From: a virus
Taxonomy: Duplodnaviria; Heunggongvirae; Uroviricota; Caudoviricetes
Reading direction: 5' to 3' (one strand)
Length of the DNA: 52,139 nt
IMG/VR virus record: IMGVR_UViG_2541047752_000007
Coordinates: 1-52,139 of that record
A program made the position numbers and the translations under genes. Positions 3,992-50,071 of this stretch are shown here, one piece after another. The notes under the pieces were generated by a model. It was not told the DNA's origin, searched no databases, and saw nothing but the letters and a program-made list of their open reading frames with translations. Each line of letters begins with the position of its first letter. Position 1 is the stretch's first letter.

Positions 3992-5110
3992 TTACAAAAT
4001 GGAATATTCAGGGTAATAAACAAAGCGCCCAATTTCCCCATGATCCGGGCTGTAAATAATCACCGCTGCCAGACGCCGCGACCGCCAGCCGCCATTAGTT
4101 GAATATGCGTCTTTGCCAGCTAATGTGCCGTGGTGCTCAACTATTCCAAGTGATGTTTCAACAACTGATTGATGGTGCAGATGTCCAGTGTGAGCGTAAA
4201 CAGCCACAGACCTCCCGAAATCCTCCCGCCAGTCAGATACGCAAGCCGACAATAAATTTTCCGGCTTTTTGATAGTGTGCCCGTGGTGGTAAGCAAGGAA
4301 TGTTTTGCCGTACTGTGTGTGGTGGACGATAGCAGGGGACACATCAACAGTTACGCGCGGTTCATCTTCGTAAAAAGCCGCCAGCGCCGCACGTAGCCAA
4401 ATCATGCCAGACTGATCGTGATTGCCTGATAGTACCTGGATTTCAATATCCTTATGATTTAACAACATCTTTCCTACCGCCAGACGTACCGCTCGGATCG
4501 CTACATAGACAAGTTTTGCATAGCGTGAATCGCAATCCAGTACGTGATTGCTTGATGGCGTAACTGGCAACAGCCCGTCAGTGTGAAGAACATCCCCACC
4601 GAGAAGCAAAACAGCTTTTTCAGACATCGGCGCAGCGCCCACCGCGTAGTCAAAGAATTCATTCAACACGCGTTCAGCGATCCCAGTGTCGTAGCTCTCG
4701 CCGCATTCAGCTTTATGAGCAAGCGCCCCGATATGCAGATCAAATACCGGATAAAGGGCCAGGCTTTTTTGAAAATCAATTTCAGGCACTGGCACGGCCT
4801 CCGCGCGTGGTATTTCTTCCGTGAATGCGTCGCGGGCAGCTTCCATTAGCCTTTCCATTTCATCACGGTCACGGGCAGTTTTAATCCAGCGCATGACCGT
4901 ATTACCAGCCTTATCGACAAGAACAGATTCACCAGTAATGCCAAAACCAGGCGCGCGACGCGTTGATATTAAACCGCGTTTCGCCAGTTTTGCGCCTAGC
5001 CGCTCGACGTTGCGTTTTGACATGCCATATTTTTCAGCGATCTGCTTGTACGTTAAACCGTTGTTATATTCAGCGATCAATTGCTCATCGCTGATTTTTC
5101 TTTGCGACAT
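3992..5110 (-). CDS. HTH domain fused to calcineurin-like metallophosphoesterase
   Basis: 372 aa; N-terminal LTYKQIAEKYGMSKRNVERL HTH; phosphoesterase motifs FDLHIG, GGDVLHTDG, SGNHD, YHHGH, HTGHLHH. Confidence 0.6.
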   Translation of the reverse strand: MSQRKISDEQLIAEYNNGLTYKQIAEKYGMSKRNVERLGAKLAKRGLISTRRAPGFGITGESVLVDKAGNTVMRWIKTARDRDEMERLMEAARDAFTEEIPRAEAVPVPEIDFQKSLALYPVFDLHIGALAHKAECGESYDTGIAERVLNEFFDYAVGAAPMSEKAVLLLGGDVLHTDGLLPVTPSSNHVLDCDSRYAKLVYVAIRAVRLAVGKMLLNHKDIEIQVLSGNHDQSGMIWLRAALAAFYEDEPRVTVDVSPAIVHHTQYGKTFLAYHHGHTIKKPENLLSACVSDWREDFGRSVAVYAHTGHLHHQSVVETSLGIVEHHGTLAGKDAYSTNGGWRSRRLAAVIIYSPDHGEIGRFVYYPEYSIL

Positions 5111-5143
5111 AATGTTATTTCCTCATGTTTACATTTTGTATAT

Positions 5144-5866
5144 TTATTGACAACAAACAATCTCTTTATATGTTTCTTCTACCATGTCGAATACTTCCGG
5201 CCTGTAATAAAAAAATTCAGTGCTACCATCAAACTTAACAGGGAAGTTTATTTTATAGTCACTGAAAGCATCGTGCATTTTGCTTTCTATTTCCTGCATA
5301 ATCTCAGTAGGCCCATTCCATGTTTTAACTACCTGTAAATCAGTCAGCCTTACACCTGCCTTACGAGCACTTTTAAATACTCTGTTCCTCCTTTCGTTCT
5401 CTTTTACGCTTACACCAATTTTCATTTGTGTAGGCACTTCAAGATCATCAACCATGATGTAAAGTTTTCCGTTGTAGTGTGATAAAAACCCGTATTTAGC
5501 GCATTTCGGGCAACCGCGCCCGCTCTTAATGTCTCTAGGTTTAGCCGACCACTCATGATCACAAACCTTGCAGCGGCATAATACTTTTGTACTGTTATTA
5601 ACTATTTCAACCAGCACTTCAATATCAGGATTAACCTTAGCAATAGCCGATATTTGTTCTTCATGCGATAACTTCATATTCCCAGCGCATTTCTGGCAAC
5701 CACGTCCATATTTAATATTGCTAGGTGTAGCCGACCATTCATGGTTACAAACTTTGCAGCGACATAATACTTTTGTACTGTTATTAACAATTTCCCCTAA
5801 CACTTCAACATCAGGATTAACTTTCGCGATAGCTGCAACTTGTTCTTCATGTGTTAACTTGCGCAT
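5144..5866 (-). CDS. T5orf172 (GIY-YIG-like) domain protein with duplicated N-terminal zinc ribbon
   Basis: 240 aa; two copies of HEEQxAAIAKVNPDxEVLxEIVNNSTKVLCRCKVCxHEWSA...GRGCxKCA; C-terminal GKLYIMVDD...KIGVS...TEFF matches T5orf172 pattern. Confidence 0.5.
   Translation of the reverse strand: MRKLTHEEQVAAIAKVNPDVEVLGEIVNNSTKVLCRCKVCNHEWSATPSNIKYGRGCQKCAGNMKLSHEEQISAIAKVNPDIEVLVEIVNNSTKVLCRCKVCDHEWSAKPRDIKSGRGCPKCAKYGFLSHYNGKLYIMVDDLEVPTQMKIGVSVKENERRNRVFKSARKAGVRLTDLQVVKTWNGPTEIMQEIESKMHDAFSDYKINFPVKFDGSTEFFYYRPEVFDMVEETYKEIVCCQ
5490..5866. repeat. intragenic tandem duplication, about 180-bp unit x2
   Basis: 5570-5700 and 5750-5870 are near-identical (e.g. gcagcggcataatacttttgtactgttattaac vs gcagcgacataatacttttgtactgttattaac). 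Confidence 0.8.
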
Positions 5867-6240: not shown

Positions 6241-7293
6241 TCAAAGAACGCCAGCGCGCGTATCACGTAGCGTTTTTGGTTTAAGCAGGAAATCAAGTGT
6301 CGCGGTGAAGCCATCGCCGAAGTAAAAATCTGAAGCCGTGTTTTTGAACGTTTCGAAGTAGGCGACAAAGCCGTTAATGCTTTTGTCTTTCAGGTAGTCA
6401 GTGAACGCATAGATCTTGCGTTCAAGATCCCGATCCAGTTCGGCAGGTGGTAACAGGCCGTCAAACGTGCTGTTAAATGCTTCCACCACGTCGGCAGCGT
6501 TTACAGTGGCTGACAGTTTGCGCCATTGTTCAGCATCAGTCAGATACCCATCAAATTTAGTTACCCGGCAAATGTTGATAGGCTTAGGTACTCCACCACG
6601 GCTACGCCATTGGGTTAAAGCCCACTCAATTACTAACGTGATCTCATTCTCCGTATACGCTTTACGTGTTTTTGTTTCTGTCAGTAGTTCTACGAATGGC
6701 TTAGCATCACGACATTTGCATCCTGCCTTGTCGTTGTAGAAGGCAAGGCAACGCAATGCCGCTTCGTTTACGCCATCCTGATTGACCATTTTTTGTTCAT
6801 TTTCGACAATACACGAAGTGTATATATCTTTTTCTCTTTCTTTTTCTACTTCTAATTCTAATTCATGACCCTTTCCTGACCCGGTCATGACCCTATCATG
6901 ACCTTTTTGTGTTGGATTGATTAACTTTTCTAATTTTAATTGCTCCTTCGCTGTGTTTATGGCGGCCCTGTAAGCGCTTTTAGAAGTCATTGATTGGTCC
7001 AGCCTTTTCAATAACTTTAAACAAGTTATGTGGCCTTGAGAACATTCAAACAAACCAATTTCGATGAAGTATTTCATCATTTCTTCTATACGTTTTTCAG
7101 TAGATCCGACGTTTCGAGCAATGATTCTCGCGTCATGTCGTAGGTCAAAAGTCAGATTGTGCTGATCTACGTCATAAGTTATTAGTTCGAGGCAATACCA
7201 ATAAAGCCCGTACCCTTCCAGGCCATAATCTAACAAAACGTTTTGAAGTTTTTCATCGCGGTTCGCATCGCTGTCATGCTTAAACCACTTCAT
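6241..7293 (-). CDS. phage replisome organizer / replication initiation protein (DUF4373-like N-terminus)
   Basis: 350 aa; N-terminus MKWFKHDSDANRDEKL...GLEGYGLYWYCLELI typical of Lin1244-like N-domain; GGAGGG RBS. Confidence 0.6.
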   Translation of the reverse strand: MKWFKHDSDANRDEKLQNVLLDYGLEGYGLYWYCLELITYDVDQHNLTFDLRHDARIIARNVGSTEKRIEEMMKYFIEIGLFECSQGHITCLKLLKRLDQSMTSKSAYRAAINTAKEQLKLEKLINPTQKGHDRVMTGSGKGHELELEVEKEREKDIYTSCIVENEQKMVNQDGVNEAALRCLAFYNDKAGCKCRDAKPFVELLTETKTRKAYTENEITLVIEWALTQWRSRGGVPKPINICRVTKFDGYLTDAEQWRKLSATVNAADVVEAFNSTFDGLLPPAELDRDLERKIYAFTDYLKDKSINGFVAYFETFKNTASDFYFGDGFTATLDFLLKPKTLRDTRAGVL

Positions 7294-7859: not shown

Positions 7860-8507
7860 ATGAAAACAAAATGGTATGACTTAGCAAAGCAGCTCATGCG
7901 GGCGCAGGGCATGAGCCAGGATTCGCTCGCGGATCGTATGGGGATAACTAAAGGCGGCCTGTCACACTGGCTGAACGGTCGCCGAGAGCCAAATCTTGAA
8001 GATATTGCGCGGATTATGCGCGAGCTTGGTCGTCGGCAGTTTACTGTTACACATGATGGCATGGTCATTGATGATTCTGTTTCTAATACACTTCAGGCCG
8101 TGCCGCCGCGTGATTTAGGTAGTTACCCGGTTATTGACTGGAAGGACACAGTAAACAATATGGATGACGCAAGGCGTTCAGCATTACGACACGTTACGAC
8201 TAGCGTTATTTGTTCAGATGACAGTTACTGGCTGGTTGCCAAAGGTGAATCAATGAACGCGCCGCAGGGGTTGAGCATCCCGGCGGGGACGATGATACTT
8301 GTGGACCCGCACGCGCCAGCTATTGACGGCAAACTGGTTATAGCCCAGCTTGAGGAAGGGCAGATACCGACGTTTAAACAGTTGATTATTGATGGAGGTC
8401 AAAGGCTTTTACGTTCGCTCAATCCGCTGTATCCGCCAATCCCTATGAATCCAGAATCAAAAATTATAGGCGTGGTGGTTGATGCGAAGATCGTAAACCT
8501 GCCATAA
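7860..8507 (+). CDS. CI-like phage repressor (HTH_XRE plus S24 LexA-like peptidase)
   Basis: 215 aa; N-terminal HTH MSQDSLADRMGITKGGLSHWLNGRR; C-terminal GESM (Ser) and VVDAK (Lys) autocleavage dyad. Confidence 0.85.
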   Translation: MKTKWYDLAKQLMRAQGMSQDSLADRMGITKGGLSHWLNGRREPNLEDIARIMRELGRRQFTVTHDGMVIDDSVSNTLQAVPPRDLGSYPVIDWKDTVNNMDDARRSALRHVTTSVICSDDSYWLVAKGESMNAPQGLSIPAGTMILVDPHAPAIDGKLVIAQLEEGQIPTFKQLIIDGGQRLLRSLNPLYPPIPMNPESKIIGVVVDAKIVNLP

Positions 8508-8538: not shown

Positions 8539-8630
8539 CCTGGAAAACACCAAAACGTAAACAGAAAACGTTATTTATTATTTAAATATCAATGGCATAT
8601 AAAATATTTTAAAAAAGTATACAAAATGGA

Positions 8631-9007: not shown

Positions 9008-9298
9008 ATGAGCGTTACAATTATATATGGTAAATGTGATAGCAAAATGAATGCCAGGGAACGCAGAAGGATAAAAAGAGAAAACGAAAGAAAATCATCA
9101 CCTGCAATCAATAAAACAGACAATGTGGATAAAGCTATTCGATTTGCAAACGAGGAAAGATGCAAACCAAATAGCATTAAAGAACGTCGCAAAGGATCAG
9201 TAAAATGGTATACGGAAAATGAAAGCGGCAGCTACTACCACGCAACGCAACCACGCCATTTAGGGGAAAAACCCCTGGATAAAGTCCGCTACCATTAA
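9008..9298 (+). CDS. basic protein with arginine-rich N-terminal motif, possible N-like antiterminator
   Basis: 96 aa; NARERRRIKRENERK resembles an arginine-rich RNA-binding motif; first gene after promoter and long leader. Confidence 0.35.
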   Translation: MSVTIIYGKCDSKMNARERRRIKRENERKSSPAINKTDNVDKAIRFANEERCKPNSIKERRKGSVKWYTENESGSYYHATQPRHLGEKPLDKVRYH

Positions 9299-9328
9299 TA
9301 CAAAATGTAAACATCCGGAGATGACATT

Positions 9329-35851: not shown

Positions 35852-35863
35852 AAGGTGAATACT

Positions 35864-36541
35864 ATGATCCATGTTCGTACAGGGCAATTTGCGGCTGTGG
35901 TGAACGGTAAGCGCTATGAGTTTAATCCTTGCTTTGCTGCGATGGCTAAAATCGGCAACGATAGTGAGCTTGTCGAATATTTCGCACTTATCCACGGCAG
36001 CAAATACCCTTCACGATTACCTACAGATCCAGACCTCCGCAATCGCATTATGGCACGGTGTTATGGTGAGATAGTGCAAACGTCAATGCGCATCCTGAAA
36101 TGTTGCTCAGACGACGAAACAGGCCCGTTATTGGGCAAATGTAGGTTTACTCCTTCTGGTAAATTGAGACTAAAACCCGGACTGATGCCTACAAGTGATG
36201 TTATCACGCTGGCGCAACATTGCATGTACCACGGTTTAATTGGTGACGGGCCGGAAGAAGACACGGGCGCGATCCAGGAAGGCGAGTACAAGCCGACATT
36301 TGACGTACTTGAGTTTGTTTATTCTGCCGTTGCTCACCTGGGATTGTCAGAATCAGAAGCATGGAATATGACAATGACCGGATACAGGGCCGCAGTGCGC
36401 GCTAAAACGCCGCCAGACGAAAGAAATGAAAGAAGTAGACCAAATGTTCACATAAATAAACGTGCTTATGACGAGCAAATGGAGGCCGCTAAAAAGGCAC
36501 TGGAAAGAATGAAAAATAGCAAGCAAGAAAAAGCCCGGTAG
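35864..36541 (+). CDS. putative tail assembly chaperone
   Basis: 225 aa from ATG 35864; between major tail and tape measure; no slippery heptamer found. Confidence 0.4.
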   Translation: MIHVRTGQFAAVVNGKRYEFNPCFAAMAKIGNDSELVEYFALIHGSKYPSRLPTDPDLRNRIMARCYGEIVQTSMRILKCCSDDETGPLLGKCRFTPSGKLRLKPGLMPTSDVITLAQHCMYHGLIGDGPEEDTGAIQEGEYKPTFDVLEFVYSAVAHLGLSESEAWNMTMTGYRAAVRAKTPPDERNERSRPNVHINKRAYDEQMEAAKKALERMKNSKQEKAR

Positions 36542-36556
36542 ATCCGGGCGTTCATC

Positions 36557-36976
36557 TTATTTGATTCTAATAATATCAATAAACCCGTTACCCAAATCTA
36601 CAATTGCGTAATTTTTTGCGCCCGCGCCGCCTTCATTAAAAATTCTTTCCGCGAAAGCAACTTTATTTGCCTTGCACTCGTTTGCTATCCTGTTTTTTAT
36701 TTCGCTATTATTTTCAAAGACTACGCCTACAGCAGCCTCGTTTACAAGGCCATAATTAAACCAGCGAGCATAAACTGGTTTACCTTCAAATTTTTTATCA
36801 ATTGCCTTAAAAAGAATTGCTGGCGCGGCTGGTTCTTTTTTGATCATGTCGTGATATGCTGCTACATGGTTTGCCACTTCTTCACAGTTAATGCTTATGG
36901 CCTCGTTAGCGTTCGCGTTAAATGCGAGTGCGGCAATCACAGTAAGTGCCATTTTTGCTAACCGTTTCATAATCAA
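36557..36976 (-). CDS. secreted (signal-peptide) protein, reverse-strand moron
   Basis: 139 aa; N-terminal MKRLAKMALTVIAALAFNANA signal peptide; convergent with chaperone gene. Confidence 0.5.
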   Translation of the reverse strand: MIMKRLAKMALTVIAALAFNANANEAISINCEEVANHVAAYHDMIKKEPAAPAILFKAIDKKFEGKPVYARWFNYGLVNEAAVGVVFENNSEIKNRIANECKANKVAFAERIFNEGGAGAKNYAIVDLGNGFIDIIRIK

Positions 36977-37200
36977 CTCCTACCGCTTATTATGATTTGC
37001 TAAATTCTTCCTTTAACTTATTTATACACGCATATTGTTTATTTTTTAAGTGCTTTTAACATTTCTTCGATGAAATCCGCATAGCGTTCATGTTCGTTGG
37101 GGCGGTAGTTTGCGTTTTTCATTTTCTTGTCCCCTTTTGCTTCCTCCGGTTAATCCGGCCTTTTAAATCCATTTGCTCTATCCCTTCCCTTTAGCTTCTT

Positions 37201-37240
37201 TATACAAAATGTATTCGTTGAAATGAAGCCATTTTGTATA
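37201..37240. repeat. perfect 11-bp inverted repeat upstream of tape measure gene
   Basis: tatacaaaatg - 18 bp spacer - cattttgtata; 40 bp upstream of TMP start. Confidence 0.8.
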
Positions 37241-37279
37241 AAATAGAGGCATACATCACATTCTGCATGAGGTTAAATC

Positions 37280-39619
37280 ATGGCTACCAGTGTAGGTACA
37301 ATTTATTACGAAGTTGATGCGAAAACTGGTCAACTTCTCGTTGCACAACGACAGGCAGACCAGGCCTTTGATCGTATAGAGCGCGGCGCAAAACAGGCTG
37401 ACCGCCAGGTAAACACCCTGAAAACATCCATCAAGGCACTGACCAGGGTTATCCATTTGCTAATTGCTGCCGAGGCTGTGCGCCAATTTATGGATATGGC
37501 GGAGCAAGCAAAAATGCTTCGCGTAAAAATCAAAATGCTTACGGGCGATGCAGAGTCCGCCGGACGGGTTTTTGACGGCCTGAAAGCAATATCCAGGGAG
37601 ACGGGTCAGAGCCTGAAGGATACTGGCGAACTATGGCAAGGCCTGGCTATCTCACTGAAGAACACGTCAGCTACCGAAGGTCAATTACTTAACCTTGTCG
37701 GCACTATTCAGAAAATGGGGGCGTTAGGCGGTGCGTCAGCAGAGCAAATGTCAAACTCTATGCGCCAGTTCCGCCAGTCTATAGACGGCGGCGTGCTGCG
37801 TGCTGAAGAATTTAACAGCCTACTTGAAAACACCCCGACCATCGTACAAACAATGGCCCGCCATATGGGATTATCAATGGGCCAGTTCCGCGCCGAAATG
37901 CTGGACGGTAAGATCACGGCAGAAAGGATGGTTAACGCAATCCAGGCGGCTACGCAGGAAACAAACGAGAAGTTTGCGCAGTTGCCGCGCACATCCGGCA
38001 CGGCTATCAATGAACTAAAAGTCGAGGTAATGGGTCTGGTGGAACAACTGGACGATCTTTTCGGTGTATCAGATGGCGTAGTCTCAGCTATCGACTTGAT
38101 CACAAAAGGAGTTAATGGGCTAGGTGAGGGCGCTAAATTCGCTAAAACCTGCTTTGATACGCTCAAAACGGCTGGTAGCGAATTCATCGACATGTTTGAT
38201 GATGTGGCTGTGAAGGCTGGCGAGGTGGCAGAGAAGATCATCGCAATGGTGACGCCAATCAAGGCGCTAATGGATGGCTATAAATGGATGAAAGAGATTG
38301 TCGATGAACGCAAGGAAGAACTAAACAGCAACAACGAGAAAAAATTTGGCCCTACCATCGGTAAATTCATGACGTTTAAAAACGACATTGAAAAGGCGAC
38401 CGCCGCTTATGACGAGCTTATGCAGAAACAGGCAGAAGCCAACGACGGAGCTATTACCGGATTCGATAAGCCAGTTGATAAGCCGAAAAAACAGAAAAAA
38501 GAGAAGAAATCGGAAGCTGATCGGCTTGGAGACAAGGGCATAAGCGTTTCTGATCAGTACAACAAAGACGCCGCCGCCATGCGCAAAGCGTTAGAGAACG
38601 GCAAGGCCATTGATGCTGCGTTCGCCCAGGGTAAAATCACACTCCTTGAGTACCGCGCCGCGCAAAAAGGGATCGGCAAGGAGCTGAAAGAAGAATTAGC
38701 GCAGATCCCGGTAGATGAATTGCGTGATAAATGGTCGCAAATAGTTAGCCCAATGGACCAGCTAAAAGGCGAAGTTGACCCTATCCAGCAGGCGCAAAAT
38801 GAATGGGCCGTCCGTAAGCAAATGCTTATCGACCTGGGCGCTACAGAAGCACAACAGAAACAGGAATTATTAGCCTATGAGCAGCAGATCCGCGATCTGA
38901 AGTGGGAACAGTGGCAGGCGCAAAGCCAGACAAACGGCCTGATCGGTGATTGCGTTAATGGCCTTAAAGGTGGCATGAGCAATGCGCTTGTTGGCCTGCT
39001 TAACGGTACTCAATCATTGAGCGATGTTTTTGCTAACTTAGGCAGCAATATACTTGGGAATATCGGTAACAGACTTTCGGACATAGCTGCCAACTGGATA
39101 GCAGATCAAATCATGATGGAGACACAAAGCAAAGCCACGCAGGCCAGCACAACGGCAAGCGCGGTTGCCGCTCAGGGAAGCATTGCTGCGGCGGCGGCCC
39201 CGGCGGCGGCAGCGACAGCGGCATCAACTGGCGGTAGCTGGGCGGCGGCTGGCTCGGCGGCGCTTACTGCGATCATGTCGCTGGCAACATCCATTTTCGG
39301 CGGCGGGCGCTTTAATGGTGGTAGCGTAATTGGTGGCAATATGTACCGCGTCGGGGAACATAACAGGCCGGAGCTATTCCAGACGTCTAACGGCAACCAA
39401 TACATGATCCCCGGCGAGAATGGCAGGGTTATCCCGGGCCGTGATATTGGCGGCGGCGGCGGTATCAGTATGCCTGTTTACATCGACATTCAAACCACAA
39501 ACGGATTTAGTGACGAAGACAGCCGCAGACTTGAACAGACAATGGAACGTGTAGCCATGAAAATGATAACAAGGGAATCGCAAAGACCTGGCGGGATGTT
39601 GCAACCGCGCCGCAAATAA
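37280..39619 (+). CDS. tail tape measure protein (lambda H-like)
   Basis: 779 aa; coiled-coil, Ala/Gly-rich C-terminal region; position. Confidence 0.85.
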   Translation: MATSVGTIYYEVDAKTGQLLVAQRQADQAFDRIERGAKQADRQVNTLKTSIKALTRVIHLLIAAEAVRQFMDMAEQAKMLRVKIKMLTGDAESAGRVFDGLKAISRETGQSLKDTGELWQGLAISLKNTSATEGQLLNLVGTIQKMGALGGASAEQMSNSMRQFRQSIDGGVLRAEEFNSLLENTPTIVQTMARHMGLSMGQFRAEMLDGKITAERMVNAIQAATQETNEKFAQLPRTSGTAINELKVEVMGLVEQLDDLFGVSDGVVSAIDLITKGVNGLGEGAKFAKTCFDTLKTAGSEFIDMFDDVAVKAGEVAEKIIAMVTPIKALMDGYKWMKEIVDERKEELNSNNEKKFGPTIGKFMTFKNDIEKATAAYDELMQKQAEANDGAITGFDKPVDKPKKQKKEKKSEADRLGDKGISVSDQYNKDAAAMRKALENGKAIDAAFAQGKITLLEYRAAQKGIGKELKEELAQIPVDELRDKWSQIVSPMDQLKGEVDPIQQAQNEWAVRKQMLIDLGATEAQQKQELLAYEQQIRDLKWEQWQAQSQTNGLIGDCVNGLKGGMSNALVGLLNGTQSLSDVFANLGSNILGNIGNRLSDIAANWIADQIMMETQSKATQASTTASAVAAQGSIAAAAAPAAAATAASTGGSWAAAGSAALTAIMSLATSIFGGGRFNGGSVIGGNMYRVGEHNRPELFQTSNGNQYMIPGENGRVIPGRDIGGGGGISMPVYIDIQTTNGFSDEDSRRLEQTMERVAMKMITRESQRPGGMLQPRRK

Positions 39620-39624
39620 CACTA

Positions 39625-39650
39625 AGGCCGCTATAAGCGGCCTTTATTTT
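39625..39650. terminator. bidirectional rho-independent terminator after tape measure gene
   Basis: aggccgc-tataa-gcggcct followed by ttatttt; between convergent genes. Confidence 0.55.
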
Positions 39651-39756
39651 ACATGGTAAGGATATAAATTAAACAGCACAGGAATGCGGGCGCGGCGAAG
39701 TCGCAAACGCTAGCCATATTCCATGCTTTTGGTAAAAAACCACCATACCACGGCAT
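39649..39756 (-). CDS. small hydrophobic peptide (35 aa)
   Basis: MPWYGGFLPKAWNMASVCDFAAPAFLCCLIYILTM; GGAGGG about 12 nt upstream; C-terminal part of ORF-track 39649-39840. Confidence 0.3.
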   Translation of the reverse strand: MPWYGGFLPKAWNMASVCDFAAPAFLCCLIYILTM

Positions 39757-39799
39757 TCTTTCTCGTTTCCCTCCGCAAAATTCCGCTATGTAACGATAT

Positions 39800-39934
39800 T
39801 CAGCCTGTGTGTTCCCGCGCAAAAAAGAATGTACATCCAATCAGGCCGCCAGTGAGATAATCGCCAGTAAGCAGGCCGATAACAACCTGTATAGTCGCCG
39901 CAGCCAGTGCGTGACCAATAACGGTTAAATCCAT
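39800..39934 (-). CDS. small glycine-zipper membrane peptide (44 aa)
   Basis: Hand-translated MDLTVIGHALAAATIQVVIGLLTGDYLTGGLIGCTFFFAREHTG; GGGAGGA RBS 7 nt upstream. Confidence 0.4.
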   Translation of the reverse strand: MDLTVIGHALAAATIQVVIGLLTGDYLTGGLIGCTFFFAREHTG

Positions 39935-39936
39935 CG

Positions 39937-40122
39937 TTAATCCTCCCGATCGTTCTCAAATGTGCCATCTACAAATTTTTGCAGCCCGGCGATAAGTTGT
40001 GTTGCCTGCGATTTTTCAATCACTATGGTTTCAGTCCCCATAAGTTCGGTTATCCACAGCCGACCATCCTCATCAAGATCTAACCTAACTCCGTAACATA
40101 ACTCTGTTTCGTCAATAATCAT
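39937..40122 (-). CDS. hypothetical acidic protein
   Basis: 61 aa; stop overlaps start of the 44-aa peptide gene. Confidence 0.4.
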   Translation of the reverse strand: MIIDETELCYGVRLDLDEDGRLWITELMGTETIVIEKSQATQLIAGLQKFVDGTFENDRED

Positions 40123-40231
40123 TTTTCCTCCTATAATCTTCCGTTACGTGCGACGTAACCCCTGCCGAACATCACTAACCAGATGTTCCAGATCTCCCGC
40201 TAGGTATATTTCTCCTCCTCCATATTCCACC

Positions 40232-40486
40232 TCACTTATGAGCGCCTTTCACTCCGCAATGACGGTTGTATTCCAGGTGATCGATAATTAACCAAATATT
40301 CAAATCTTCACTGAACAGCCGCCAGTCAGGATTGATATCGAATTTAAAGCCATAACCATCACGTAATTTTTTGGGGCGGGCTTCTTTTTTCAGGAAGGCG
40401 TTAAGCAACTTCTTGCCTTTCTTGATTACCCGTTCCTGTGCATTCTTTTGTGCTTTCAGGTTTTTTTCGATAGTTACCAGTTTCAT
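40232..40486 (-). CDS. hypothetical basic protein (84 aa)
   Basis: Lys-rich N-terminal half; possible toxin-like fold but no confident family. Confidence 0.4.
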   Translation of the reverse strand: MKLVTIEKNLKAQKNAQERVIKKGKKLLNAFLKKEARPKKLRDGYGFKFDINPDWRLFSEDLNIWLIIDHLEYNRHCGVKGAHK

Positions 40487-40503
40487 AACTCACCCCATCG
40501 TCC

Positions 40504-40659
40504 TTAGTTAAGCGCCCTCAGGAAGAAATCCCGGTATTCATCATCCTTCGCGTTCATCATGAATTGACCGTATTTGAATGCGTCGTCGAAACCCTTAACA
40601 ATTGCTACTTCCACTTGCTCGAATGCGTTGTTTAGCATCACTACTACATAGCTACTCAT
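40504..40659 (-). CDS. hypothetical small protein (51 aa)
   Basis: Hand-translated MSSYVVVMLNNAFEQVEVAIVKGFDDAFKYGQFMMNAKDDEYRDFFLRALN; 17 nt upstream of the 84-aa gene. Confidence 0.35.
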   Translation of the reverse strand: MSSYVVVMLNNAFEQVEVAIVKGFDDAFKYGQFMMNAKDDEYRDFFLRALN

Positions 40660-40796: not shown

Positions 40797-40830
40797 GATA
40801 TATACAAAATGTAACTTACAGGAGGGGGGT

Positions 40831-41184
40831 ATGCCGGAAGTGTTCAGATGGACACCACAGAGAAGCTACAGCGTAAACAGTGAGCCTAACGTGTCCGTTA
40901 TCAAGCTGGGCGATGGCTATGAACAGCGCCAGACAAAAGGGATTAATCCACTACTTGACAGCTATACGCTGGTCTTTAAAGGTACGAGCGCCGGATGCGG
41001 TGACGCCGGAAACGTGGCGCTCCAGGTTGACGCATTTTTAAGAGCACGTTGCGCGGTCGAGGCGTTTTACTGGACGCCATCTACAGACGGAGTGAAAAGG
41101 CTTTTTGTATGCCGAAAGTGGAGCATGGCGAAAGACGGCCCGGTATGCACTCTGAATGCAACGTTTGAACAAGTTATCAATTAA
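40831..41184 (+). CDS. M: minor tail protein M
   Basis: 117 aa; FRW, GDGYEQRQ, FEQVIN align with remembered lambda gpM. Confidence 0.8.
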   Translation: MPEVFRWTPQRSYSVNSEPNVSVIKLGDGYEQRQTKGINPLLDSYTLVFKGTSAGCGDAGNVALQVDAFLRARCAVEAFYWTPSTDGVKRLFVCRKWSMAKDGPVCTLNATFEQVIN

Positions 41185-41412: not shown

Positions 41413-41529
41413 TTATTCCATTTCCATTAACGCTATATTTTCCGCTATCGTTTTCCAGTCCAGATCTACAGCATGAACACCAAATACTATCAATCCCATT
41501 GCGATTAGTGCTAAAACTTCGATTTTCAT
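41413..41529 (-). CDS. small single-TM peptide (38 aa)
   Basis: MKIEVLALIAMGLIVFGVHAVDLDWKTIAENIALMEME; GAGG RBS. Confidence 0.35.
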   Translation of the reverse strand: MKIEVLALIAMGLIVFGVHAVDLDWKTIAENIALMEME

Positions 41530-41541
41530 AATCAACCTCAC

Positions 41542-41622
41542 TTAATTAAGAAAGGCATAAACGATGACAATCGCGCCAGCCACTACCAAAACGTTTTCGA
41601 TTACTTCGTCCACTCTATTCAT
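41542..41622 (-). CDS. small single-TM peptide (26 aa)
   Basis: MNRVDEVIENVLVVAGAIVIVYAFLN; start shares a base with upstream stop. Confidence 0.3.
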   Translation of the reverse strand: MNRVDEVIENVLVVAGAIVIVYAFLN

Positions 41623-41825
41623 TAAGGTAACTCCACTTCATTAAATGTAACAAGCACCCCTTGATTTTCTTTATTTATAATTATGAAGGCATTAATTGAA
41701 GGCAGACATCTTTCCACGCGGTAAACGTCACCAATATCTAAACTGTAATATTCTGTTAATTCTCTATTGTTCCCTTTAGCAAAACCCGTAAACCTAACCA
41801 TTCCTTGACCGTCGTACTTTAACAT
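41622..41825 (-). CDS. hypothetical protein
   Basis: 67 aa ORF in moron operon. Confidence 0.4.
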   Translation of the reverse strand: MLKYDGQGMVRFTGFAKGNNRELTEYYSLDIGDVYRVERCLPSINAFIIINKENQGVLVTFNEVELP

Positions 41826-41833
41826 ATACAGTC

Positions 41834-42082
41834 CTATAGGCTATCACGCAGATAATTAACGCCCTTATCAGTGACGAATGAATGATTAACCTGGTTTTCA
41901 TCCGTCATGATGATGAATAACTTTTCCTGTAGGTATTTCGCTTTCGGGTACAGCGTTAAGCAGACCTGGTACAAAATCCCGCGCTCAATCAGCAAATCAA
42001 TAAATTCGTGCTCATGATAACCGATAAGGCGGGCGGCCTGCTTCAACGTGTACACATAATCACTGTGATTGCGCCGCGCCAT
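41834..42082 (-). CDS. putative HTH DNA-binding protein
   Basis: 82 aa; YTLKQAARLIGYHEHEFIDLLIERGIL helix-turn-helix-like. Confidence 0.4.
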   Translation of the reverse strand: MARRNHSDYVYTLKQAARLIGYHEHEFIDLLIERGILYQVCLTLYPKAKYLQEKLFIIMTDENQVNHSFVTDKGVNYLRDSL

Positions 42083-42090
42083 ATTGCCAC

Positions 42091-42438
42091 CTATTTGTCG
42101 AACGCTCCAAGATTATCTATACAGAAATCCTTTGCCGCTTTTTCGTATTCGCGTTTTGCTTGCGGATCGTCAGCCGGGAAACCTTTTGCGTGTATTTCAC
42201 CAGGGCAAGACTGATCCATAGAGTCTGCAAAATTAACATTGAAGTTAACATTAATATCTTTCGGGTTCATATCTTCCACCTCATCAACTATCTGTACCGG
42301 ATTAGCAGCATATTTCACTGGATGGCCTAAACTACATTCAAGAATCCTGCCTTCTTCCAGGGCTACTTCTTCGCTATCAAATAATCCGAAACACTCCTTT
42401 CTGCCACTTAACCACACATCAAGACTGTATTTTTTCAT
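42091..42438 (-). CDS. hypothetical protein (about 115 aa from MKKYSL)
   Basis: ORF-track 42091-42540; internal start chosen to avoid long overlap. Confidence 0.4.
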   Translation of the reverse strand: MKKYSLDVWLSGRKECFGLFDSEEVALEEGRILECSLGHPVKYAANPVQIVDEVEDMNPKDINVNFNVNFADSMDQSCPGEIHAKGFPADDPQAKREYEKAAKDFCIDNLGAFDK

Positions 42439-42606
42439 TTTTGTTAGCCTCATATTTGACAGGTTCGATCTGGTATCCCAAAAGGCGGTCATCCTCAACA
42501 AGTAAAAGCGCGTCAACCAATGCTTCCCCCTCGTCGTCATACAGGGCGATAACCTTTTCCCTACCGTCTGTCATGAATGCCGTCAACTTCCATAGCTTTT
42601 CAGTCA
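42419..42606 (-). CDS. hypothetical small protein (62 aa)
   Basis: MTEKLWKLTAFMTDGREKVIALYDDEGEALVDALLLVEDDRLLGYQIEPVKYEANKNEKIQS; GGAGGTG RBS; first gene of moron operon. Confidence 0.45.
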
Positions 42607-49076: not shown

Positions 49077-49676
49077 ATGGCTACTTTCGGCGCTTATTTA
49101 CGTTTAAGTAATGGCAATATTTTCGTAACTCCAGATTCGACACCTATGTGCCTTTATTCGCGGGTTGCTCTAAATTCAAGCCAACAGCAAACAATAGCCG
49201 TTCCCAATGGTAAGCCTGTAATGGTATTCATAAAAAACACAAACGATACCGCTACTGGTGTAGCCTATCGCAATTCATCGTCTACCATAGTGATCCCACC
49301 TGGGAATGGTTATGCGTATATATTCAGCATCTTCCCACAATCGCGTCCTAAGTGGGGGATGGCTATATGGAACGCTTCAGGGGAACTGGTATTGACAAAC
49401 GAATCAAGAATATTAACAGACATTGTTACGGTAGGCACGGCTGGATCGAGTGGTGGGATTTATATTGATCAGACGTTATCAGGATCTTATGCGGTAGTTC
49501 CTCAGATATTGGGGGCCGCTGTAGGTATGGGTTCCGCAACAATATATACAGAATCATACTACAACGGCAGCAATACACGAATTCGCGGGAAGATGGTTGG
49601 TAGCTTGCAACAGATTTACGGTTACATTAATCACGGGAACGCTATCACCGCCATTAAAACCGACGCCTATGATTAA
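49077..49676 (+). CDS. hypothetical tail-associated protein (MATFG paralog 2)
   Basis: 199 aa starting MATFGAYL; N-terminal similarity to preceding gene. Confidence 0.45.
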   Translation: MATFGAYLRLSNGNIFVTPDSTPMCLYSRVALNSSQQQTIAVPNGKPVMVFIKNTNDTATGVAYRNSSSTIVIPPGNGYAYIFSIFPQSRPKWGMAIWNASGELVLTNESRILTDIVTVGTAGSSGGIYIDQTLSGSYAVVPQILGAAVGMGSATIYTESYYNGSNTRIRGKMVGSLQQIYGYINHGNAITAIKTDAYD

Positions 49677-49912
49677 TTCAGTTCCGGGCAATCCGTTTTC
49701 TTGAAGTGGTCAACGCTTACCCATTGGAAGTTAAACGGATACCCGGCCTTAACCATTTTATGACCGCCAACATCCGCGACACCGAAGACTGCAACCGCAT
49801 ATTCATTACCTCCAGCCTGATAAGTTGCCGTGCATTCACGTTTCGGCATATCAGCGCAACCAACCATACCAGCGACCATTGCAGCTATAGCGATATTTTT
49901 AAAGCCTTTCAT
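49673..49912 (-). CDS. small lipoprotein, Cor/Llp-like superinfection-exclusion candidate
   Basis: 79 aa from MKGFKNIAIAAMVAGMVGC (lipobox MVGC); GGAGGA RBS; reverse strand just downstream of J. Confidence 0.45.
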   Translation of the reverse strand: MKGFKNIAIAAMVAGMVGCADMPKRECTATYQAGGNEYAVAVFGVADVGGHKMVKAGYPFNFQWVSVDHFKKTDCPELN

Positions 49913-50071
49913 TGTCTTATCCTCCATTGTTCCGTCGGTTGTAGTATCCATAAACATCGTTTTCTCAACATTGATATAAATCAATAAATACATTTTGTAT
50001 AAACCAGAAATGTAACGCAGATCACAAAATGGTAAAATTACCAGGTTAATTAACATAATGGAGTCATTGCG

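Follow-up and report, generated by a model that had tools for sequence, protein, structure and literature searches.

An antisense moron-type gene for a predicted periplasmic protein in a cargo-exchange slot between tail genes of mEpimmI-type coliphages

In the 52,139-nt stretch of DNA that we analysed (the window), which derives from an mEpimmI-type (mEp021-like) temperate coliphage, two plus-strand tail genes enclose a short unit that is read in the opposite direction. One neighbour is a DUF6246 gene, a putative tail assembly chaperone by gene position only, and the other is a TMP_3 tape measure gene; both lie downstream of a Phage_tail_2 tail tube gene. On the minus strand between them are a micro-ORF and a gene that we term cargo A (Table 1). 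The ORF named in the original prediction is present at 36557..36976 of the minus strand, with 139 aa when counted from a TTG codon, and translation almost certainly begins at the ATG at 36970 instead, which gives 137 aa (MKRLAKM...). MKRL is the N-terminus of every cargo A homologue. The Shine-Dalgarno sequence directly abuts the alternative TTG start, and both the ATG and the ribosome-binding site are conserved among homologues.

Table 1. Features of the locus in the window, and cargo families found in the slot of related loci
Feature	Coordinates	Strand	Basis or description
Left backbone gene DUF6246 (PHROG 791)	35855..36541	+	Pfam E 3.5e-54; PHROG match
Intrinsic terminator of antisense unit	36523..36549	-	Terminator scan; stem GCCCGG/CCGGGC 36533-36549, U-tract 36532-36523
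Exchangeable cassette	36550..37040		Windowed identity, window vs loci L007, L009, L006, L005, L047
Cargo gene A, 137-aa precursor	36557..36970, stop codon included	-	ORF listing, homologues
Mature protein, 116 aa	36560..36907	-	Alignment; AF2 model
Signal peptide, 21 codons, MKRLAKMALTVIAALAFNANA	36908..36970	-	Rule-based check
Shine-Dalgarno AGGAG	36981-36977	-	Read from sequence; 6 nt upstream of ATG 36970
Candidate sigma-70-like promoter TTAAAA-17 nt-TATAAA	37049-37021	-	Read from sequence; weak; not reported by scanner
Conserved 27-aa micro-ORF MKNANYRPNEHERYADFIEEMLKALKK	37039..37122	-	ORF listing; upstream of cargo, same strand
Palindrome TTTATACAAAATG-N18-CATTTTGTATAAA	37199..37242	.	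Repeat search; between divergent antisense unit and tape measure gene
Right backbone gene, tape measure protein (TMP_3)	37280..39619	+	Pfam E 2e-50
Cargo family A		-	137-139-aa signal-peptide protein
Cargo family B		-	100-aa, two hydrophobic segments, presumably membrane
Cargo family C		-	116-119-aa signal-peptide protein
Cargo family D		-	124-aa lipoprotein, weak below-cutoff BamE-like match
Cargo family E		-	203-219-aa VasI/TagO-like lipoprotein; PF11319, E 2e-16
Cargo family F		-	106-aa protein, no export signal
Cargo family G		-	165-aa signal-peptide protein
Cargo family H		-	245-aa lipoprotein

Cargo A is a real gene under strong purifying selection. Between allele types, whose proteins are ~70% identical, dN/dS is 0.05-0.24 with synonymous sites saturated, and an alignment of 15 sequences contains 63 invariant columns. 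The homologues include mEp021_63, mEp010_97 and MagusPhagus CDS0039. A chance antisense frame with a hydrophobic N-terminus in a non-coding spacer would agree with the database names of cargo A, which are 'hypothetical protein' only. That reading is refuted because of the substitution pattern; the conserved start codon and ribosome-binding site, the invariant columns and a confident fold prediction also speak against it, and we leave it a negligible probability.

The signal peptide, described as canonical in the original prediction, stood up to a rule-based check of its n-, h- and c-regions. Its n-region carries the charges K2, R3 and K6, an uncharged hydrophobic core of ~11-13 residues follows, and A-N-A occupies positions -3/-1 before N22, which places a putative SPase I site at ANA|NE. 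The window has 145 ATG-ORFs of 60 aa or more; two of them satisfy these rules, one being cargo A. Among homologues the h-region differs in sequence and keeps its hydrophobicity. The signal peptide has no cysteine, and no lipobox ([LVI][ASTVI][GAS]C) is found at its end; the first cysteine is residue 8 of the mature part and has no lipobox context. By these rules cargo A is predicted to carry a Sec-type (Sec/SPase I) signal peptide of the cleavable type, and the protein would be exported and cleaved. We consider it very likely that the locus holds a genuine exported accessory cassette.

The mature protein has a mass of 12.8 kDa, a pI of 6.9 and a hydrophilic composition (GRAVY -0.12), and it contains two invariant cysteines, C29 and C99 of the precursor. 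An AF2 model (pLDDT 86.4, pTM 0.81) predicts an N-terminal strand, five helices and a C-terminal beta-hairpin, which together form a helical bundle with a small sheet; this model had no fold match in PDB or BFVD. The sequence had no match in Pfam (E <= 0.1), PHROGs, NCBIfam, PADLOC or the PDB sequences, and a Pfam search with 15 family members at E <= 10 returned noise only. A word-indexed search of 5.8 billion proteins recovered the cargo A family itself only, in 17 clusters that all derive from E. coli or Caudoviricetes, and an exhaustive profile search of 1.84 billion representative proteins extended this by EF-hand repeat proteins and a single repeat protein only. Every family member that was looked up occupies the same slot, and no chromosomal or pathogen-specific homologues were found in these searches. 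The cargo A family is an orphan, without a sequence or structural relative. An EF-hand identity was considered and rejected, the HMM matches to eukaryotic EF-hand repeat proteins being a product of repeat summation. In the 12-residue calcium-binding loop of an EF-hand, positions 1, 3 and 5 are D, N or S and position 12 is E, whereas positions 3, 8 and 12 of the EF-hand-like loop of cargo A (DKKFEGKPVYAR) are K, P and R, respectively; we dropped this lead because the hhalign probability is 8.8% and the calcium ligands are missing.

Both structural elements that had been proposed to bound the gene were located, the hairpin (predicted at 36530-36550) at 36533-36549 and the inverted repeat (predicted at 37201-37240) at 37199-37242. 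The hairpin has six G-C pairs and a fold of -16.5 kcal/mol (z -4.2), and because the minus strand carries its U-tract (UUUUUCUUGC) we assign it as the terminator of the cargo A gene. It shares sequence with the final codons and stop codon of the plus-strand DUF6246 gene and is present in all slot-bearing loci irrespective of the cargo, with variable loops. At the other end of the unit, the micro-ORF ends 14 nt before the cargo ATG in mEp021-type loci. It has 17 peptide variants in 37 loci and an in-frame indel, its variable columns number 11, 5 and 18 of 28 at codon positions 1, 2 and 3, and it has also been called by other annotators. A tblastn search of 50,697 phage records found it in mEpimmI phages only.

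Further upstream, the outer arms of the palindrome (TTTATACAAAATG and CATTTTGTATAAA) match perfectly over 13 bp. The arm cores are kept in 40 of 40 distinct upstream sequences, with a loop that varies, and the arms persist even at loci whose tape measure proteins share only 31% identity. The palindrome is stable as RNA on both strands, and its motif occurs in the window more often than expected (11 matches against 3.5). Copies also stand ahead of structural genes, as with the minor tail gene at 40831, from which the end of one copy is separated by ~20 nt, and another precedes a probable exclusion lipoprotein gene near 49.9 kb. We regard the palindrome as a candidate bidirectional regulatory or promoter element and the TATACAAAATG motif as a putative binding site of a factor; the palindrome could be the site at which a phage regulator activates the unit during lytic growth and not in the lysogen. 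A consensus sigma-70 scan of the minus strand upstream of the unit found no promoter site. The weak sigma-70-like candidate in Table 1 is found only in window-type cargo A loci, and a palindrome arm contains TATAAA, another weak promoter candidate. A pairing by eye of the palindrome and GATCACA motifs as -35 and -10 elements was rejected because the spacing differs between motif copies. The conserved spacer had no match above noise in Rfam.

Cargo A is one of several occupants of its position. In 53 related loci of the E. coli type the slot measures 640-1319 nt and each locus has minus-strand ORFs assignable to cargo families, of which there are at least eight, mutually unrelated and mostly envelope-targeted by prediction (Table 1). 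The sequences of cargo C and G that were examined likewise have two cysteines in the mature part. In relatives with ~30-40% DUF6246 identity the gap to the tape measure gene is only 0-89 nt and there is no slot. Homology between the window and other-cargo loci stops immediately to the right of the terminator and immediately to the left of the micro-ORF. A comparison of a locus carrying cargo A and D (L043) with one carrying C and B (L032) gave ~90-95% identity across the palindrome, micro-ORF and signal peptide, a drop to ~35-40% directly after the ANA codons and a return of identity at the terminator. The signal peptides of families A and C are 95% identical in nucleotides and those of D and H 86%, and BLASTP found no similarity between the mature parts of either pair; with hhalign, A resembles C over residues 1-43 only. 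These BLASTP and hhalign comparisons, in which the similarity lies in the signal peptide only, led us to reject a common origin of cargo A, C and G. The slot cleanly illustrates how recombination breakpoints can fall at a signal-peptide cleavage site. No relation is visible between cargo type and the N-terminal tape measure allele and, therefore, nothing ties cargo A to a tape measure target.

These observations bear out the suggestion, made in the original prediction, that the gene is accessory cargo running against the tail operon. The unit is a moron-type accessory cargo: it is replaced by other cargo in close relatives and has no slot in the phages with a more distant DUF6246; its base composition deviates from that of its neighbours (39.6% GC in cargo A and 38.2% in the slot, against 47.2% in the DUF6246 gene, 51.2% in the tape measure gene and 45.9% in the window); and it has its own minus-strand terminator. 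In addition, mEp021_63 is not among the genes annotated as virion proteins detected by mass spectrometry. One of the main ways in which temperate phages alter their hosts is through morons carried in tail operons, and to our knowledge most of their products have no assigned function. [quoted passage not shown] Cargo A has the same genome position and is likewise accessory, and both products are envelope-located, that of cargo A by prediction. Unlike gp15, however, cargo A has a cleavable-type signal peptide, a predicted soluble domain of 116 aa and no bacterial homologues, and unlike gene 15 it is antisense, preceded by a micro-ORF and placed in an exchange slot for many families. No sequence relation of cargo A to gp15 or YebO was detected with Pfam or among the 1.84 billion representative proteins. 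Neither the cargo A gene nor the slot is discussed in the paper on the mEpimmI phages, a group reported to be prevalent in the human gut.

Our results suggest the following course of events. The unit would be read leftward from the conserved regulatory region with the palindrome, through the micro-ORF and the cargo gene, to the terminator overlapping the DUF6246 stop codon; the micro-ORF and cargo A may be co-transcribed, and expression may take place in the lysogen. The precursor would be exported by Sec and cleaved after Ala21 to yield a soluble 116-aa periplasmic protein, mainly helical by prediction and probably stabilised by one disulfide. The conserved borders (on the right the regulatory region, micro-ORF and signal-peptide codons, and on the left the terminator and the 3' end of the DUF6246 gene) may act as recombination anchors, so that unrelated mature domains could be exchanged downstream of one shared export signal. 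Cargo A would most likely serve to alter the envelope of the host cell of the phage, and the guess that we favour is superinfection exclusion, acting when DNA injection reaches the periplasm. We judge this account as a whole, of an antisense moron-type unit with exported cargo, in an exchange slot and with a role at the host envelope, to be reasonably probable; exclusion as the specific function is a tentative assignment that may well turn out otherwise.

Several known exclusion systems offer parallels. Spackle of T4 (Sp, gp61.3) is a periplasmic, signal-peptide-bearing, helical and disulfide-bonded protein. Like Spackle, Imm of T4, Sim of P1 and SieA of P22, which stop incoming DNA after adsorption, cargo A is a small phage-encoded protein, predicted to act in the envelope; it differs in that it has no sequence or fold match among PDB and BFVD entries and in that no counterpart of their targets (the tail lysozyme gp5 and others) is recognised here. 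Ltp of the Streptococcus phage TP-J34 is a secreted, helical protein that blocks DNA injection via the tape measure protein. It provides a mechanistic model for a periplasmic protein encoded beside a tape measure gene, although it is a lipoprotein with HTH-like repeats from a Gram-positive system and is not encoded in the tail operon, and no similarity of cargo A to Ltp was detected. Llp of T5 prevents the loss of progeny on debris. Cor inactivates the outer-membrane receptor FhuA (PMC3594210), and the mEpimmI phages carry, elsewhere in the genome, exclusion lipoproteins that exclude mEpimmI phages and lambda (PMC11893012). Like Cor, Llp and the mEpimmI lipoproteins, cargo A is a prophage-encoded, signal-peptide-bearing and predicted envelope protein near tail genes; the difference is that they have a lipobox and are lipoproteins, whereas the lipobox cysteine is missing from cargo A, for which a soluble periplasmic state is predicted. 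A probable homologue of the Cor/Llp/Lpp type lies on the minus strand of the window at ~49.7-49.9 kb. Known exclusion and defence proteins gave no match to cargo A in PADLOC, Pfam, PHROGs or the PDB/BFVD fold search.

Other functions for an exported protein at this position have to be weighed against exclusion. The original prediction had raised membership of a periplasmic lysozyme-inhibitor family, which would act either against host lysozymes, as do Ivy, MliC/PliC and PliG, or against an incoming tail lysozyme in the manner of Spackle. Cargo A is the right kind of protein for this role, being small, with a signal peptide and a conserved cysteine pair, and Spackle is equally small, helical, disulfide-bonded and periplasmic. 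This suggestion was not supported: the Ivy, MliC/PliC and PliG models had no match to 15 members of the cargo A family at E <= 10, cargo A does not show the characteristic fold of a lysozyme inhibitor, and its confident model has no fold match in PDB or BFVD, which makes this role highly improbable. Cargo A might instead be an orphan immunity protein against competitor toxins that act in the periplasm (colicins, amidase or muramidase effectors of type VI secretion systems, or CDI toxins), in a slot that gathers envelope-defence genes helping the lysogen in bacterial competition. The presence of many unrelated envelope proteins with a fast turnover behind conserved export signals is the pattern of an arms race, and one alternative cargo is the VasI/TagO-like 'T6SS-associated' lipoprotein of family E. 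We nevertheless find this explanation unlikely, as cargo A has no similarity to any known immunity family and no adjacent toxin gene.

An equally unlikely alternative is a Bor/Lom-type host-fitness or virulence factor, that is, an envelope protein expressed by the prophage without a part in conflicts between phages, which would alter serum resistance, adhesion, stress tolerance or outer-membrane homeostasis. Such a role is the classical one for morons in lambdoid tail regions (PMC3594210), the carriers of cargo A include gut, animal, food and STEC isolates, and the alternative cargo D has its weak BamE-like match; however, the family is confined to the phage slot, without chromosomal or pathogen-specific homologues, and cargo A is predicted to be soluble in the periplasm and not surface-exposed. 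It is also conceivable that the unit is switched on via the palindrome after induction or infection and that the protein acts during phage growth, by blocking secondary injection, preventing progeny loss on debris or tuning lysis. The conservation of the arms across divergent tape measure genes, the recurrence of the motif ahead of structural genes and the failure of the consensus scan to find a clear constitutive promoter all favour a lytic role of this kind. Against it, cargo A is dispensable and replaced by unrelated cargo in close relatives, morons expressed by prophages typically run antisense and have a terminator of their own, as this unit does, and the motif also stands before the probable exclusion lipoprotein gene; we consider a lytic role improbable.

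A further question is why unrelated proteins share an export signal. P2/P4-type prophage hot spots hold many unrelated accessory genes at a fixed position between conserved genes, and bacteriocin and conotoxin genes combine a conserved export leader with hypervariable mature parts. The slot resembles both the P2/P4-type defence hot spots and these leader-conserved, cargo-variable loci, but unlike the hot spots its cargo is predominantly envelope-targeted and no PADLOC defence model matched cargo A, the micro-ORF or seven alternative cargo proteins. The shared signal peptide may be a by-product of homologous recombination between conserved flanks and not a selected platform. A bolder interpretation, which we think doubtful, is that the gap between chaperone and tape measure genes of the mEpimmI phages is a dedicated export-ready dock, with the fixed palindrome, micro-ORF and signal-peptide codons on one side and a terminator built into the DUF6246 end on the other, at which unrelated mature domains are recombined exactly at the signal-peptidase site. 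If true, the locus would generate diversity among periplasmic and lipoprotein effectors used in warfare between phages or between bacteria, and cargo A would found a new exclusion family, periplasmic and with a new fold.

What is new here is an orphan family of predicted periplasmic proteins, with a confident predicted fold that has no structural relative, at the genome position of HK97 gp15. The more useful result is the slot itself, where the unrelated and mostly envelope-targeted families stand behind shared signal peptides. It provides a compact, delimited panel of ~10 small genes that can be screened for exclusion, toxin protection or envelope phenotypes, and the isolated mEp phages are a ready experimental system for its cargo.

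Cargo A, the antisense signal-peptide gene between the DUF6246 gene and the tape measure gene, is an accessory gene under selection; it has the features of an export signal, ends at a terminator of its own and lies in a hot spot where envelope-protein genes recombine. The ORF of the original prediction is present at 36557..36976 (-); judging from its sequence, the true start is almost certainly the ATG at 36970, giving 137 aa. All homologues begin with MKRL, and an AGGAG sequence lies 6 nt 5' of this ATG and directly abuts the TTG start. The N-terminus (MKRLAKMALTVIAALAFNANA, followed by NEA after the predicted cut) has the features of the signal peptide that had been claimed: the n-region is charged, the hydrophobic core carries no charge, A-x-A precedes the cut and no lipobox is present. 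A rule-based signal-peptide scan of the window's 145 ATG-ORFs of 60 aa or more was passed by just two, one of them cargo A. The c-region is coded by a hexanucleotide repeat, AACGCN, specifying Asn-Ala; some homologues (P0003, P0004 and the one in locus L013) have one or two added units (NANANA.., 139 and 141 aa), which points to slippage exactly at the predicted cleavage site.

Comparison of alleles shows that cargo A is a real gene. Among the 16 distinct DNA alleles recovered, window-type and mEp021-type alleles share 69% nucleotide identity, with saturated synonymous sites and a dN of ~0.15-0.2, while dN/dS inside allele types is 0.10-0.24. An alignment of 15 proteins has 63 invariant columns, including cysteines C29 and C99.

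Features of the slot and of other accessory regions in the window
Feature	Coordinates	Strand	Remarks
Tail tube gene (Phage_tail_2)			neighbour of cargo A
DUF6246 gene	35855-36541	+	putative tail chaperone, by gene order alone
Terminator hairpin	36533-36549	-	GCCCGGAUCUACCGGGC-UUUUUCUUGC, -16.5 kcal/mol
Cargo A	36557..36970	-	
AACGCN repeat	36908-36925	-	signal-peptide c-region
AGGAG	36981-36977	-	
~26-nt segment	37020-37045		..GTTATACACGCATATTGTTTATT..
Weak promoter candidate	37049-37021	-	TTAAAA-17-TATAAA; window-type loci only
Micro-ORF	37122..37039	-	MKNANYRPNEHERYADFIEEMLKALKK; hydrophilic, 27-29 aa across loci; between palindrome and cargo
Palindrome	37199-37242		
TMP_3 tape measure gene	37280-39619	+	
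Motif TATACAAAATG / CATTTTGTATA	5132-5144, 8616-8628, 9295-9307, 37199-37211, 37230-37242, 40799-40811, 49991-50003		
CI-like repressor gene	7860-8507	+	HTH_3 + Peptidase_S24
Gene near repressor	5144-5866	-	240 aa, DUF4379/CapR zinc-finger domains
Gene near repressor	6241-7293	-	350 aa, Lin1244_N
Antisense island	39649-40659	-	between tape measure and minor tail genes; four small ORFs
ParE-like toxin-domain protein	40232-40486		within island 39649-40659
Antisense island	41413-42540	-	includes KilAC/ANT-like ORF, 41834-42082
Antisense island	~49673-49915	-	lipoprotein ORF, MKGFKNIAIAAMVAGMVGC...

Matches to the region come from Escherichia phage MagusPhagus (94% nucleotide identity), from the mEp021 group and from prophages, the last in 35 of the 5,426 complete E. 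coli genomes. These are mEpimmI phages, a group of Nus-dependent, non-lambdoid temperate siphoviruses. The study that describes the group characterised its exclusion lipoproteins (gp81 of mEp021, gp116 of mEp010) along with the repressor, integrases and receptors; it contains no discussion of the cargo A gene or its slot (PMC11893012). We surveyed the slot, from the DUF6246 end to the tape measure gene start, in 76 viral contigs encoding DUF6246 relatives and in annotated phages and prophages. Gap sizes ran from 640 to 1319 nt in the 53 E. coli-type loci, all of which have minus-strand ORFs assignable to cargo families. Where DUF6246 is only ~30-40% identical (viral contigs L058, L061, L062, L065, L069, L071), the tape measure gene follows within 0-89 nt; hence, the antisense slot is apparently confined to the E. 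coli mEpimmI lineage.

The cargo comprises at least eight unrelated families: A, the signal-peptide protein of the window (137-139 aa); B, with two hydrophobic segments, presumably membrane (100-107 aa); C, a signal-peptide protein (116-119 aa); D, a lipoprotein with a weak, below-cutoff BamE-like match (124 aa); E, a VasI/TagO-like lipoprotein (PF11319; 203-219 aa); F, lacking an export signal (106 aa); G, a signal-peptide protein (165 aa); and H, a lipoprotein (245 aa). They occur as A alone (17/53 loci), A+D (1/53), B alone (9/53), C alone (3/53), C+B (2/53), C with a 74-aa ORF (1/53), E+D (10/53), E+F (7/53), G (1/53), H with a 60-aa ORF (1/53) and E-like alone (1/53). All family A members looked up lie in this slot, and cargo type does not correspond to the tape measure N-terminal allele across loci. 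GC content is 38% in the window's slot versus 47-51% in the flanks. PADLOC gave no match to the slot cargo proteins, whose PHROGs have no assigned function.

Between the window and loci with other cargo, homology ends at ~36550 and ~37040. Two loci, L043 (A+D) and L032 (C+B), are ~90-95% identical over the stretch that begins at the tape measure start and takes in the palindrome, the micro-ORF and the signal peptide; identity drops to ~35-40% directly after the Ala-Asn-Ala codons, returns in a 100-nt linker, is lost again in the second cargo and is back at the terminator. In the DNA of the signal peptide, A and C genes share 95% identity and the D and H lipoprotein genes 86%; no similarity was found between the mature parts of A and C or of D and H. 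The slot borders are fixed, and the signal peptide is the anchor for cargo exchange; this exchange, which spans at least eight families, is what most deserves further work. The linker corresponds to a 33-aa hydrophobic micro-ORF of relatives (MDIIKSIIDVYMSAWVAFNVMTVFVLAVTIKEK; 4417-4518 in locus L085) that overlaps the stop codon of the first cargo. This conserved joint between first and second cargo genes (L025, L032, L043) is absent from the window and is broken by a TGA codon in L043.

The hairpin that had been noted beside the ORF has its U-tract on the minus strand and is therefore the terminator of the antisense gene. It overlaps the final codons and stop of the DUF6246 gene, whose end (..QEKAR*) in the mEpimmI lineage encodes the antisense terminator; hairpin and U-tract are kept in all slot-bearing loci regardless of cargo, and only the loop varies.

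At the other border, the inverted repeat of the original prediction was likewise located, and its arm cores are conserved in 40 of 40 distinct upstream sequences, including phages with a tape measure protein only 31% identical. The arm motif has 11 matches in the window at up to 2 mismatches versus 3.5 expected, a count reached in 0 of 100 shuffles. In one of its orientations the motif stops ~20 nt short of the start codons at 5110 (-), ~9329 (+) and 40831 (+, minor tail protein); it also lies ~90 nt before the probable exclusion-lipoprotein gene, and often has a GATCACA element 12-25 nt away. This over-representation and positioning suggest that the motif may bind a phage regulator, and it may be a promoter, operator or RNA element of mEpimmI-type phages. 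The micro-ORF is probably translated, since its 24 distinct alleles have 11/5/18 variable columns at codon positions 1/2/3 and their sole internal indel is in frame; it is also called by other annotators, is unannotated in mEp021, and occurs beside cargo types A, B, C, E and G. In mEp021-type loci its stop lies 14 nt before the cargo ATG, suggesting an operon. With a ~26-nt segment that is absent from other loci, window-type cargo A loci have a spacer of 68 nt instead of 14, and the segment gives rise to a TATAAA resembling the palindrome arm. A promoter scan of the window gave no minus-strand site for the antisense unit; besides the weak candidate tabulated, the TATAAA within the palindrome arm is another candidate, also weak.

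Cargo A behaves as a moron by classical criteria, and so adds a new, uncharacterised example to a well-known kind of element, at the position classical for it. It had no match in Pfam, PHROG, NCBIfam or PADLOC. A search of 5.8 billion proteins gave just 17 clusters of relatives, every one of E. coli or Caudoviricetes origin, and an exhaustive profile search of 1.84 billion representative proteins added nothing credible. It is encoded by MagusPhagus, mEp010 and mEp021 alone out of 50,697 phage records; in mEp021 the homologue, mEp021_63, carries the label "hypothetical protein" rather than "virion structural protein." In its mature form (116 aa, 12.8 kDa, pI 6.9) the protein is confidently modelled (pLDDT 86.4, pTM 0.81) with five helices, a strand at the N-terminus and a hairpin at the C-terminus. 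An EF-hand look-alike at residues 39-75 was rejected (hhalign probability 8.8%, Ca ligands absent).

We propose that cargo A and the micro-ORF would be co-transcribed from the conserved region near the palindrome, and that the protein would be exported by Sec, cleaved after Ala21 and disulfide bonded in the periplasm. Phage exclusion is among the commonest roles of envelope-located morons of temperate coliphages, e.g., gp15 and Cor (PMC3594210, PMC11893012); HK97 gene 15, the very first moron, has the same genome position as cargo A, and its product is an envelope-located superinfection-exclusion protein (PMC3594210). By analogy, exclusion of other phages is the leading candidate for its function, which we put forward tentatively; a soluble periplasmic protein encoded beside the tape measure gene would be well placed to disturb the periplasmic stage of DNA injection. 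The other commonest role of envelope-located coliphage morons is host protection or adaptation, as with Bor and Lom, and a contribution of cargo A to host fitness is conceivable but improbable, as, to the same degree, is immunity to a toxin. A regulator bound at the motif may turn on the antisense unit in lysogeny or in lytic growth, and a lytic-cycle role is a little less probable again. Exported accessory cargo, as originally proposed, was right in kind; the known lysozyme-inhibitor families named with it are unsupported, given the orphan search results, and lysozyme inhibition appears very unlikely.

Near the CI-like repressor gene, two minus-strand genes may be further accessory or defence-type genes. 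More antisense islands break up the tail operon, and the lipoprotein ORF in the last of them probably encodes the mEpimmI phages' Cor-like Lpp exclusion protein.
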